Made by a program: the position numbers and the translations under genes. From an uncultured Bdellovibrionales bacterium (GTDB taxonomy: Bacteria; Patescibacteriota; Minisyncoccia; Moranbacterales; UBA2206), in assembly GCA_964636505.1 (NCBI GenBank), contig CAZWRY010000003.1, forward strand, positions 4,871-68,870: a DNA stretch of 64,000 bases, read 5' to 3'. The notes below the pieces were generated by a model. It was not told the DNA's origin, did not search any database, and saw only the letters and a program-made list of their open reading frames with translations. Position 1 is the stretch's first letter. Each line of letters starts with the position of its first letter. Shown here in pieces: positions 9,332 through 30,165 of the stretch.

Positions 9332-10798
9332 TTATTTTATTCTTTGAAAAAGCGGCTCGACTTGTCTGGTTTCCAGGGCTTTTTTTATTTTTTCGGCAGT
9401 TTCGGGTAAAAATGGAGTTAACAAATCAGAAATAACACTTAAATCTTCTACCAGTTTTTGCATTACTTCTTGAAATCTTTCTGAGTCATTTTTAGCAAGT
9501 TCCCAAGGCTTATTATCTTCAATAAACTTATTGTCTTCTTTGATGATTCCCCAGATATAATCCAAACCAAAACTAAGCTCCATCTTTTCAATGAAGGGAT
9601 CCAGCTTCCCCGAAGCTAAGCTTCGGGGTGATTCACCACGAAGCTTAGCTTCGGGGGACAATTTAATAACTCGTGAAACCAGGTTTCCAAGTCCATTGGC
9701 CAAGTCTGCGTTATATTTTTCCGTCATCCATTCCCAATTGATATCCACATCATCACCAAAACTATTGAGACTCAGCAGAATGTAGCGCGTGCCATCAATG
9801 CCAAACTTTTCTACCATTTCGTAAGGAGAAATGACATTTCCCAAAGACTTGGACATTTTTTGCCCATTGCTAGTCAGAAAACTATTAATGAAAATTTGCT
9901 TTGAGGCTGGCAAATTAACTGCCATAAGCATGGCTTGCCACATCGCCGACTGCGGACGTAAATTATCTTTGCCAGCTACTTGAATGCCTGGCCACCAATC
10001 AAAAAATGTTCCAGGAGCACCAACAGGTAATTGAGCAGAATCGTCAGGTTTACCCGCCGAAGCTTCAGCAGAGGCGGGCCAGCCAATAGCAGAAACATAA
10101 TTAATCAAGGCATCAAACCAAACATACATTACCTGACTTTCATCGCCCGGCACAGGTACGCCCCAAGGCATTTTTTCTTTCACGCGCGAAATAGAAAAAT
10201 CTTCCAGTCCCATATTTACAAAACTTTTAATCTCATTAAACCGGTGAGCTGGAACTATGAACTCAGGATTTTTTTCATACAAACCAAGCAGTTTTTGCTG
10301 AAAAGCAGAAAATTTGAAAAAATAATTTTCTTCTTCTCTGATTTCTATTTTTCTATTGGGGTGCAATGGACAACAACCGTCAACCAGTTCTGAATCGGTT
10401 TTTTCCAATTCGCAACCGACACAATATTTTGTTTTGTAATTCTTTTTGTAGATATAACCATTAGCTTCCGCCTGTCGCCAAAATTCTTGCGCAGCTTTCA
10501 TATGATGTTCATCGGTCGTGCGAATAAAATTATCAAAGCTCAAGTTGAGAACATTTTTTAGCTCCTTGAATTTTTCTACTTGTTGATCACAATAGGCCTG
10601 CGTATCCAAACCAAGCTCCTGAGCTCGTTCATATATTTTGGCACCATGCTCATCTGTACCAACATTAAAAAAAACTTCATGGCCAGCCATTCTCTGAAAT
10701 CTCGCCCAAGCATCCGCTCGAATAACTTCCCACGCATAACCAATATGCGGTTCGGCATTCACATAGGGCAAGGTAGTTGTAATATATTTTTTAGCCAT
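9332..10798 (-). CDS. metG: Methionyl-tRNA synthetase (carries an in-frame palindromic insertion)
   Basis: HIGH-region PHIGYAWE, KMSKSLGN motif, zinc knuckle CVGCE...CCPLH. Confidence 0.9.
   Translation of the reverse strand: MAKKYITTTLPYVNAEPHIGYAWEVIRADAWARFQRMAGHEVFFNVGTDEHGAKIYERAQELGLDTQAYCDQQVEKFKELKNVLNLSFDNFIRTTDEHHMKAAQEFWRQAEANGYIYKKNYKTKYCVGCELEKTDSELVDGCCPLHPNRKIEIREEENYFFKFSAFQQKLLGLYEKNPEFIVPAHRFNEIKSFVNMGLEDFSISRVKEKMPWGVPVPGDESQVMYVWFDALINYVSAIGWPASAEASAGKPDDSAQLPVGAPGTFFDWWPGIQVAGKDNLRPQSAMWQAMLMAVNLPASKQIFINSFLTSNGQKMSKSLGNVISPYEMVEKFGIDGTRYILLSLNSFGDDVDINWEWMTEKYNADLANGLGNLVSRVIKLSPEAKLRGESPRSLASGKLDPFIEKMELSFGLDYIWGIIKEDNKFIEDNKPWELAKNDSERFQEVMQKLVEDLSVISDLLTPFLPETAEKIKKALETRQVEPLFQRIK
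9608..9657. repeat. GC-rich nested palindrome inserted in-frame within metG
   Basis: ccccgaagctaagcttcgggg + tgattcacc + acgaagcttagcttcggggg. The full ~50 nt is a near-perfect inverted repeat and encodes SPEAKLRG(E/D)SPRSLASG on both strands. Confidence 0.5.
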
Positions 10799-16697: not shown

Positions 16698-16768
16698 TGG
16701 ACTTAGCGAGAATCGAACTCGCGTCCCCGCAATGCGAATGCGGTGTGCTACCACTATACCATAAGCCC
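16698..16768 (-). tRNA. tRNA-Ala(CGC)
   Basis: Cloverleaf: acceptor GGGCUUA/UAAGUCC with the G3:U70 Ala identity pair; anticodon stem CCGCA/UGCGG; loop UUCGCAU; T-arm GCGAG-UUCGAUU-CUCGC. No encoded CCA. Confidence 0.85.
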
Positions 16769-16837: not shown

Positions 16838-16862
16838 AAGTATTCTAAGCTATGATGTAGGT

Positions 16863-16942
16863 GAAGTATAATTTTAGAGGCTTATTGTAAAAAATAAGAA
16901 TAGTCTTTCCATATCAATTCGGCTCTAAAATCATATTTCATC
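16863..16942 (-). repeat. Conserved leader hairpin element, copy A (second copy at 25304..25388)
   Basis: Shares the core AUUUUAGAGCCGAAUUGAUA ... CAAUAAGCCUCUAAAAUUAU with copy B; the arms pair, including G-U wobbles, and the loop differs. Preceded by duplicated ATGATTTT 8-mers and an AT-rich putative promoter. Confidence 0.4.
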
Positions 16943-16963
16943 AAAATCATATAATAATAAATT

Positions 16964-25089: not shown

Positions 25090-25400
25090 AAATTTATAAA
25101 AAATTATTAAAAAATAAAAAACGTTATCCATAAGGACGACGTTTGTCGTGGTACCACCTTAATTTCCCAGCTCTTTGCCTGCAAAGGGTTGGGCTCAATT
25201 TGGCTATTACGGGCTTGCCCGGCAAGTTTTACTCGTCAAAAGACTTTCTTCTTGCGGCTCCGAGGTGATAGCCTCATCATCGCCTTTAACTACATTTGAG
25301 TTCTTCTGAAGATAATTTTAGAGGCTTATTGCAAACAGCATAATTAAAGTTTTTTTCTTATCAATTCGGCTCTAAAATTATCTTCAGAAAATTATCTTTG
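25090..25400 (-). promoter_or_regulatory. T-box riboswitch leader upstream of ileS
   Basis: Minus-strand AAUUAAGGUGGUACCACG matches the T-box consensus AAUUAGGGUGGUACCGCG. A hairpin plus UUUUUUUAUUUUUU terminator follows. Upstream hairpin GAGG-CUAUCA-CCUC exposes AUC (Ile) followed by A. Confidence 0.6.
25304..25388 (-). repeat. Conserved leader hairpin element, copy B (perfect 20 bp inverted arms), at the 5' end of the ileS leader
   Basis: ttctgaagataattttagag ... ctctaaaattatcttcagaa flank a 45 nt loop; shares its core with copy A. Confidence 0.45.
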
Positions 25401-29728: not shown

Positions 29729-30119
29729 GGGGATGCTTGGCATCGACAGGTTGCACATTTATAATAAGCAAGTCGAGAATGATAATAACTCGTTAAAATC
29801 TTATCAAAATGATAAGTGCAAACTTATTTTCAAAAGCAAAGTCAGTATTAGCACAAGCTTTTACTTCAAATTTTGCTCTGTCTTTGGCTTAATTGCCGAA
29901 GACCATCGGTCTGTCGAATTCTAATAGACAGGTCTCCGGTGTTATACATTGGAATAGCTGATTAGATTTTTTCTTGAGTTTGATCAGTAAAACCAATCAA
30001 GAATAGACTGAAAAATTTTTGTTTGTTCATTACCTTCAGTCGAATCAACAAACAAACTAAACTTGTAGAATATTATAGGTTAACAACACTGGACATGGGT
30101 TCAACTCCCATCATCTCCA
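29729..30119 (+). ncRNA. ssrA: tmRNA (SsrA)
   Basis: 5' GGGGAUGCUUGGCAUCGACAGG and 3' GGACAUGGGUUCAACUCCCAUCAUCUCCA form a tRNA-like domain with a G3:U70 acceptor pair. Directly follows smpB. Candidate tag frame 29818-29892. Confidence 0.8.
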
Positions 30120-30165
30120 CTATGTAAAATAATAATTTAACACCAAATATATTAGAAGAGGACCA

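Follow-up and report, generated by a model that had tools for sequence, protein, structure and literature searches.

A nested palindrome in the metG gene of a CPR bacterium is probably a REPIN-like doublet of a REP-RAYT-type system

The methionyl-tRNA synthetase (MetRS) gene metG on a 64-kb stretch of contig CAZWRY010000003.1 (the window, by which we mean the whole stretch analysed) contains a GC-rich nested palindrome that is translated in frame with the enzyme. Our reading, to which we give a probability of roughly 70%, is that this block is one REPIN-like doublet (a pair of inverted hairpins of the repetitive extragenic palindrome, REP, type) of a REP-RAYT-type system (RAYT, REP-associated tyrosine transposase) of the candidate phyla radiation (CPR), sitting in a permissive MetRS loop. 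That the palindrome belongs to a dispersed family is close to certain; that this family is REP-RAYT in nature is likely. Because the same hairpin borders transposase genes, the best reading of the element is a mobile-type repeat that is tolerated where it lies and does not serve the enzyme functionally.

On the plus strand the block reads CCCCGAAGCTAAGCTTCGGGG-TGATTCA-CCACGAAGCTTAGCTTCGGGG (49 nt; Table 1), and an inverted-repeat census resolved it into arms at 9608-9631 and 9633-9656, each of 24 nt, 96% complementary and 1 nt apart. Of the two hairpins, the first is palindromic without mismatch over 21 nt; the second, the reverse complement of the first but for one mismatch, is perfect over 15 nt with a single mismatch further out. 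The two are bridged by a third palindrome, GGTGATTCACC (9626-9636), and because two REP-type hairpins stand in inverted orientation the whole unit forms one long palindrome. Two occurrences of the 21-mer half-unit were counted in the window, where 100 shuffles give an expectation of 0.00. The GC content of the block is 60%, compared with 39% for metG and 36.7% for the whole window, in which equally GC-rich 50-nt windows make up 0.6%. Folded as a single strand, the block gives a hairpin of 22 bp, with -41.8 kcal/mol as RNA (z -8.9) and -26 kcal/mol as DNA (z -10.9). The palindrome is real and not a product of chance.

The two strands read SPEAKLRGESPRSLASG and FPEAKLRGDSPRSLASG and, because of the dyad symmetry, both encode nearly the same peptide, (S/F)PEAKLRG(E/D)SPRSLASG. 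There is one stop-free frame per strand; the other two meet TAA or TAG within the cores. The original prediction, made from the letters of the window, had described a GC-rich, near-perfect inverted repeat of about 50 nt made of two bridged palindromes, lying in frame in metG and specifying almost the same peptide from either strand; the arms, the composition, the translations and the single open frame bear out this description.

Table 1 Coordinates of the palindrome, its host gene and other features. Positions preceded by a locus label (L) refer to that locus, all others to the window.
Feature	Position	Strand	Basis or remark
metG, methionine--tRNA ligase, 488 aa	9332..10798	-	PDB MetRS matches to E 5e-106; Pfam tRNA-synt_1g and Anticodon_3
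MetRS codons S380-K397, SPEAKLRGESPRSLASGK	9608..9661	-	Element translated in the only stop-free frame
Whole nested palindrome, REPIN-like doublet (probable)	9608..9656	.	Two 24-nt arms round a central T; covariance model, fold
REP-type hairpin 1, CCCC-GAAGCT-A-AGCTTC-GGGG	9608..9628	.	On the coding strand, T-type unit encoding (P)RSLAS(G)
Spacer centre TGATTCA, middle of GGTGATTCACC	9629..9635	.	15-nt spacer between 13-nt cores, length 0 mod 3
REP-type hairpin 2, CCAC-GAAGCT-T-AGCTTC-GGGG	9636..9656	.	On the coding strand, A-type unit encoding (P)EAKL(R)
Second GC-rich (0.68) in-frame metG segment	9998-10075	-	MetRS aa 242-267, reads ASAEASAGKPDDSAQLPVGAPGTFFD
tRNA gene	16698-16768	-	Rfam
Second small repeat family	16851-16951 and 25304-25389		First beside the tRNA gene, second upstream of an IleRS-like gene
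tmRNA gene	29729-30122	+	Rfam, 150 bits
MetRS orthologue gene with direct repeats in the loop	L002 3001-4419		
RAYT-like paralogues of H14-bin043_1	L063 4023-4811; L035 5627-6346; L106 5471-6199		Each with its own hairpin on both sides
RAYT-like genes with an internal doublet	L114 5024-5677; L069 4393-5049; L100 6701-7363; L136 1338-1994; L137 10001-10642		Proteins P0122-P0165
bAvd-like and reverse transcriptase (RVT_1) genes	L137 8288-9561		Moranbacteria contig
Tandem-core loci	L061 1438-1500; L042 3574-3622; L098 6025-6073		Direct repeats

For relatives of the doublet we scanned one genome per species with the pattern GAAGCTWAGCTTC-N(4-24)-GAAGCTWAGCTTC, which matched 115 stretches in about 50 assemblies, against a chance expectation that we estimate at about 0.02. 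The shared core is 13 nt, GAAGCT-W-AGCTTC, with GC-clamp extensions. By label, the source assemblies are overwhelmingly CPR (Moranbacteria, Parcubacteria, Saccharibacteria, Falkow-, Giovannoni-, Yanofskybacteria and similar). Several genomes are multi-copy; the largest count, at least 17 exact-core doublets with degenerate copies uncounted, is that of the Patescibacteria genome H14-bin043_1, and the densest occurrence is about one doublet per 50 kb. The pattern had no match in 2.9 million viral contigs, so we rejected carriage by phages.

The family is one of doublets. Among 123 non-redundant copies 111 are of the inverted type, mostly with spacers of 6-7 nt; exactly two cores were present in 100 of the 118 loci examined, lone cores being rare, and the element spans 32-49 nt, encoding 11-17 residues. 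When 53 copies were aligned, the dyad spanning the whole element was 95.7% paired. The variable positions next to the cores show covariation, with three or four types of pair at each, to a degree reached by none of 500 shuffles; the pairing is strictly Watson-Crick, with few G-U pairs. A structure of two independent hairpins explained the same alignment less well (86.9% paired) and was set aside. A covariance model built from these 53 members (R1) recognised the metG copy on both strands with 47.4 bits (E 8e-14). Orthologous copies stay in place between genomes that are 70-97% identical, and every copy compared between genomes of 92-97% identity was retained at its site. A metagenome scan for the metG 21-mer returned 12 matches, all of them single hairpins that either resemble terminators or flank RAYT-like genes (3 of the 12); it yielded no second doublet and no close relative of the source genome. 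Separately, in metagenome-assembled genomes labelled Bdellovibrionales or Bacteroidota the core is arranged in tandem, in direct repeats of period 25 nt or about 36 nt and not in inverted doublets; this use of the motif may be unrelated.

Copies occur in coding and intergenic DNA alike, as the original prediction had suggested they might be sought. Of 112 inverted copies, 55 lie inside open reading frames (ORFs) of at least 150 aa and the remaining 57 are non-coding. The EAKL...SLAS reading is used by 50 of the 55 coding copies, and spacers divisible by three are found in 42 of these 55 compared with 10 of the 57 non-coding copies; the metG copy, with 15 nt, passes. This is a clear frame filter on the coding copies: because CTAAG and CTTAG create TAA or TAG in two of the three frames, only EAKL...SLAS copies with a multiple-of-three spacer can survive in genes. 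The hosts are unrelated housekeeping proteins. Ten were confirmed by Pfam (MnmA, PGK, a NiFe hydrogenase, a PF01261 protein, TsaD, Dus, a XerC/D-type integrase, a Mur ligase, UvrC and PGA_cap), the PF01261 host being a xylose isomerase-like TIM-barrel protein that by eye we read as endonuclease IV. LeuRS, PheRS-beta, UvrB and NadE were recognised by eye, and ArgRS, Tgt and ATP synthase gamma by tblastn against the window. The net change in protein length at coding sites is small: 0 in metG, about 0 in PGK, +3 in MnmA, +6 in TsaD and +4 in ATP synthase gamma, where the element has 16 residues. We also observed, comparing coding copies in five loci (L016, L015, L102, L086 and L095) with homologues, that native loop or helix residues are usually replaced, with net changes of 0 to +10 for elements of 11-16 residues.

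The non-coding copies have a different setting. At least one flank carries an A-run or T-run in 28 of the 57, compared with 14 of the 55 coding copies. In H14-bin043_1 they share a 45-nt unit that lies between co-directional genes, including those of ribosomal-protein operons; they are oriented with transcription, and the hairpins are followed by a U-run. An RNA-level host function is plausible for intergenic copies.

Clustering the ORFs of the family loci revealed a recurrent protein family of about 220 aa. Its members match Pfam Y1_Tnp (PF01797) with 44.5, 27.9 and 26.2 bits (cut-off 23), and in NCBIfam they score best with the model for REP-associated tyrosine transposases (REP_Tyr_transpos), at 40.7 bits, below the equivalog cut-off of 80. 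JGI labels several members RayT, and 3883 homologues at E <=1e-20 are largely from CPR. Invariant columns include H86 and H88 in a conserved PNHxH stretch and Y146, which by eye we read as an HUH motif and a catalytic tyrosine. Sequence and profile searches of the family against the PDB gave no match; the structural link comes from fold comparison, in which an AlphaFold2 (AF2) model with a predicted local distance difference test (pLDDT) score of 84 had as its top Foldseek match in the PDB 4ER8 (E 6.6e-7, TM 0.67), the RAYT of E. coli in complex with a REP hairpin, followed by the TnpA proteins of IS608 and ISDra2.

The hairpin takes up recurrent positions relative to these genes. In the clade MRKxxFxxxxYYHIYNRG, the GAAGCTWAGCTTC hairpin precedes the ATG by 14-16 nt in L123 and L129 and also lies ahead of the start in L115; it recurs 8-15 nt past the stop in L123, L129, L121, L114 and L100, and in L115 the cores overlap the gene end. 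L121 and L123 have the exact metG 21-mer itself 8-11 nt past the stop of the RAYT-like gene, and L129 has the variant with a T centre in the like place; these three loci are metagenome matches to the hairpin variant of the window. Three further loci, L136-L138, were chosen by protein homology, blind to the core, and all three have a cognate hairpin right after the stop; counted together, L123, L129, L115, L136 and L138 have the hairpin on both sides and L121, L114, L100 and L137 on the 3' side. L136, from the Moranbacteria genome JAUXSN, has doublets on both sides, of the subtype TGGAAGC..GCTTCCA with the spacer ATTGT, and the same doublet subtype is carried by the LeuRS, Tgt and other ORFs of JAUXSN; L137 and L138 have variant cognate hairpins.

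Several observations on these genes stand beside this pattern. H14-bin043_1 has three further Y1/RAYT-like paralogues (L063, L035 and L106), each with its own distinct hairpin on both sides (CGTCCCGAGACCCGATGTCGGGACG, TAGCGAGAAnnnTTCTCGCTA and TTGGAGAGGTTCGACCTCTCCAA). Some RAYT-like ORFs contain their own cognate hairpin doublet (for example ...NGSLASTMEAKLPN...), which falls in a variable loop of low pLDDT immediately ahead of the HUH strand (residues 57-65 in the model of P0121); an EAKL, SLAS or KLSF peptide occupies that loop in 19 of the 120 top RAYT-like homologues. On the Moranbacteria contig L137, a pair of bAvd-like and reverse transcriptase (RVT_1) genes with the look of a diversity-generating retroelement lies about 440 nt upstream of the RAYT-like gene, with a small HypA gene between.

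We then considered the site of the metG copy. The product of metG is a short form of MetRS that lacks the C-terminal dimerisation domain, and its closest orthologues are named methionine--tRNA ligase of Candidatus Moranbacteria (CPR/Patescibacteria). Within the anticodon-binding domain the element takes up the variable loop that comes after the helix ...ADLANGLGNLVSRVIKL, at a place where alignments with PDB structures are gapped and variable. An AF2 model of MetRS made from 22 sequences was poor (mean pLDDT 61), with a helix at 355-383, coil at 384-395, pLDDT below 50 at 388-397 and equally low confidence for the insert at aa 242-267; it lends weak support to a disordered loop at the element. 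From the helix ...LGNLVSR to the conserved NK.I motif there are 46 residues here, 41-49 in close orthologues that lack the element and 41-68 across 120 homologues. The MetRS enzymes of Thermus and Brucella are longer in the loop, the HMMER alignments placing gaps in the query and not in the structures, and in an alignment of 22 orthologues the element pairs with an equally long hypervariable loop, such as LISMTNFQFPISNKVSMTNDQFSKF in the 83%-identical P0002.

The palindrome had originally been thought to add about 17 residues to a normally short loop. This part of the prediction fails: orthologues and solved structures have an equally long, variable loop, and the orthologue alignment shows no extra segment at the palindrome, where the loop is 2 residues shorter than in the nearest orthologues. 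The 16-residue excess of the protein (488 versus 472 aa) is the sum of an 18-residue insert at aa 242-267 and the 2-residue shorter palindrome loop. At aa 242-267 the nearest orthologues have 8 residues, DDMEKFNS, so the true insertion of +18 residues sits there.

This second in-frame segment is also GC-rich (Table 1). It is common to the more distant P0022, with a nucleotide identity of 81% in the insert and 76-80% in its flanks; its first 33 nt are identical at 32 of 33 positions and include the quasi-palindrome CCCGCC(tctgct)GAAGCTTCGGCGGG. Other orthologues have different inserts at the site (S[AF]AKA[ST]xGKP..., CHCERVNKLGAIESSDLCLC...). We considered it as a possible further member of the palindrome family; its fold is weak (z -1.9) and no relatives appeared in about 1 Mb of CPR DNA, and we treat it as a separate observation.

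The loop that holds the palindrome has a varied history among MetRS orthologues. P0035 (67% identical; L001) carries GTCAGAAGCTAAGCTTCTGTC-TCAA-AACAGAAGCTTAGCTTCTGAC in the same loop, with an identical core and stem extensions changed on both sides. The metG genes of P0060 (L131) and L058 likewise carry a doublet there, the L058 copy being half-decayed. Other metG genes, among them those of P0023, P0097 and P0039, keep the two-hairpin inverted architecture with stems that differ yet are fully compensated; the loci with such stems are L132 (CCAAGAGCT-W-AGCTCTTGG), L134 (CCAAAGGC-GAG/CTC-GCCTTTGG) and L135 (a 16-nt inverted repeat). The nearest orthologues, at 83% identity, have no palindrome and an unrelated repeat instead. 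Many Moranbacteria and Parcubacteria orthologues (L002; P0002-P0059) were seen to have the loop filled with direct repeats, ATGACCAAT or CCAATTTCC, whose peptides read SMTNDQF...SMTNDQF or NFQFPISNFQSISNDQF; elsewhere (P0058, P0065 and P0024) there are GC-rich, hairpin-coded peptides. On these comparisons the MetRS loop appears to be a hot spot for repeat-derived sequence.

Among known systems, the closest parallel is with REP/REPIN-RAYT (the bacterial interspersed mosaic elements, BIMEs, of E. coli with yafM, and the systems of Pseudomonas and Stenotrophomonas). Shared features are hairpins of 20-25 nt, the inverted doublet, compensatory changes, intercistronic copies that resemble terminators or stabilisers, in other CPR genomes a candidate RAYT (Y1/HUH) gene closely bracketed on both sides by the same hairpin, paralogue-specific hairpins and a predicted fold closest to 4ER8. 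RAYT genes have been defined by their constant flanking with two inverted REPs, and REP doublets and the compensatory preservation of palindromy have been noted (Nunvar et al. 2010, PMC2817692); the CPR genes show this arrangement. The system described here differs in that its doublet also occurs inside RAYT-like ORFs, its unit is shorter (32-49 nt compared with about 70-110 nt for REPINs), its host is CPR and its proteins reach 40.7 bits where the NCBIfam cut-off is 80. The IS200/IS605 insertion sequences and their non-autonomous palindrome-associated elements (PATEs) resemble it in the Y1 superfamily (PF01797) and in having hairpin substrates beside the gene ends, the Y1 enzyme TnpA acting on subterminal hairpins of single-stranded DNA; the CPR units, by contrast, are without tnpB or a long body, have the same hairpin on both flanks and include dispersed bare doublets. 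In the literature we found nothing that links RAYT or REP to CPR, or that contains the core sequence or the peptide.

If the analogy with REP-RAYT holds, the hairpin in its single-stranded DNA form would be what a RAYT-like enzyme recognises and then copies or moves, and this may be how the family is mobilised. One copy would have landed in the hypervariable surface loop after the first helix of the MetRS anticodon-binding domain, where stop codons in two frames would leave one survivable reading; the metG copy is translated because this only open frame coincides with a loop that tolerates anything. We somewhat favour reading it as a neutral passenger, and most likely the element has no role in aminoacylation. 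The source genome presumably has a cognate RAYT gene.

Several points weigh against a REP-RAYT doublet. A tblastn search found no Y1 gene in the 64-kb window, so a candidate cognate enzyme is seen in other CPR genomes only, and no second copy was found there either: the next covariance-model match in the window, with filters off, has 11.7 bits, and exact and 3-mismatch searches, the inverted-repeat census and scans for AGCTWAGCT and for the peptide motif all returned the metG copy alone. Classical REPs are extragenic by definition and typically exceed 100 copies per genome. Here copy number is low (one in the window and tens per genome, not hundreds), about half of the copies are intragenic and in frame, contrary to the 'extragenic' in REP, and the hairpins are perfect, not imperfect. 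By inspection, no GT(A/G)G head lies next to either the RAYT-adjacent hairpins or the dispersed copies; in classical REPs this head (or CGTC) adjoins the palindrome (PMC2817692, PMC3733652). The conservation of the core across matches is partly by construction, because the search pattern fixed the core, and we observed no presence/absence polymorphism, target-site signature or excision product. Finally, comparison with orthologues and solved structures led us to reject pure insertion for most hosts; what they indicate is for the most part replacement rather than addition, which simple insertion does not predict, and which could possibly come about by insertion with a compensating deletion, by insertion into older, decayed hairpins or by conversion-type copying.

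Other explanations account for parts of this evidence. One, which we judge unlikely, is that the element is a domesticated RNA element (a terminator, an mRNA stabiliser or a site for an RNase such as RNase III), the metG hairpin tuning mRNA decay or pausing ribosomes between the catalytic and anticodon-binding domains. Host RNA roles have been shown for some REP/BIME and Correia elements, and the very stable RNA fold, the U-runs and transcription-following orientation in H14-bin043_1, the A- and T-runs of non-coding copies, the resemblance of all 12 single-hairpin metagenome matches to intrinsic terminators or RAYT flanks and the persistence of a compensated palindromic architecture in metG orthologues all fit. 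Yet no T-run follows the metG copy on either strand (from 9657 onwards or from 9607 backwards), as an intrinsic terminator would have; the nearest orthologues carry an unrelated repeat in its place; Rfam 15 at its gathering threshold assigns no family to the palindrome, its matches in the window being one tmRNA and one tRNA; and an RNA-specific signal is missing because the pairing is strictly Watson-Crick with few G-U pairs. Such a role would in any case be compatible with a REP origin and not exclusive of it. Improbable, too, is the idea that a recognition sequence, for DNA uptake or a DNA-binding protein, accumulated through recombination or biased repair at resembling sites (conversion or molecular drive, not transposition). 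This would explain the overwriting of loops at constant length and agrees with the small net length changes from metG (0) to TsaD (+6) and with a core that is identical across deeply divergent CPR classes. Uptake sequences (the DUS and USS of Neisseria and Haemophilus) favour poorly conserved protein segments and terminator-like inverted pairs, as the copies here do; in Neisseria, pairs of these short conserved motifs are used as terminators, and like Correia-type elements they form inverted pairs after genes and occur, less often, inside genes in permissive frames and positions. The CPR unit differs in being a doublet, with exactly two cores in most loci, in a density 10-50 times below that of known uptake sequences and in its adjacent enzyme family, and the Y1 paralogues of a single genome each have their own flanking hairpin, as would suit an enzyme with its substrate rather than a single uptake signal.

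A palindrome private to metG, whether by chance, for regulation or as a tRNA mimic, in what would be a lineage-specific MetRS loop, is very improbable. It would sit well with the single copy in the window, with an orthologue loop of the same length and with palindromes at the same position in several orthologues, and in this respect the test proposed in the original prediction gave a mixed result, since orthologues do share the length of the segment and some share the palindrome, while many copies exist elsewhere. Against it, more than 100 sites in unrelated genes and intergenic spacers of about 50 genomes have the identical core doublet; the hairpin flanks transposase-like genes, and its loops of 1-3 nt are unlike an anticodon arm. 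We give next to no weight to membership of the Rickettsia palindromic elements (RPEs) proper or to a remnant of homing or of an intein. RPEs comprise ten families that add 30-50 residues, and no transposase is known for them. The likeness that had been noticed stands in behaviour, in that palindromes lie in frame in many unrelated housekeeping genes, are translated and tolerated, and have further copies in non-coding DNA. It does not extend to sequence or size, RPEs (compared here by description) measuring about 100-150 bp, where our element has 32-49 nt and 11-17 residues, changes net length little and comes with a candidate enzyme; RPEs have been described as about 150 bp long and specific to Rickettsia (PMC10969869). 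As for the suggested homing or insertion remnant, nothing points to a homing endonuclease: the 17 residues contain no endonuclease or intein motif, and Pfam matches MetRS domains only.

The window also contains a second small repeat family: an imperfect inverted-repeat element of about 85 nt with two intergenic copies, TTTTAGAGGCTTATTG-(27-30 nt)-CAATTCGGCTCTAAAA (Table 1).

REPs are textbook extragenic elements that have been studied almost only in Proteobacteria, and whether they are selfish or domesticated is debated. Taking the REPIN-like reading of the metG block further, we propose, tentatively and at slightly less than even odds, that CPR bacteria have REP-RAYT systems of their own whose doublets routinely colonise essential genes as surface-loop cassettes of 11-17 residues, EAKL...SLAS, in aminoacyl-tRNA synthetases, repair and glycolytic enzymes and the RAYT gene itself, with loops such as that of MetRS being repeatedly overwritten by the cognate hairpin of each lineage. 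For MetRS itself the consequence is mundane, the segment being a replaceable surface loop. A REP-RAYT-like CPR system would widen the range of this class of element and add to its lifestyle, half of the copies being translated within housekeeping enzymes and the sequence being filtered for one open frame. It would provide, in another reduced-genome lineage, an independent counterpart to the long-unexplained RPEs, here accompanied by a candidate enzyme. Some of the peculiar low-complexity inserts that enlarge CPR proteins and upset their alignment and annotation would then have an explanation, and the copy inside the RAYT gene could be a target through which that gene regulates itself. The defined 21-nt hairpins and their cognate Y1 proteins offer testable substrates in a group where genetics is beginning. 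If the proposal is correct, a selfish single-strand-DNA repeat would, in genomes where intergenic space is scarce, be a steady source of protein-loop turnover.

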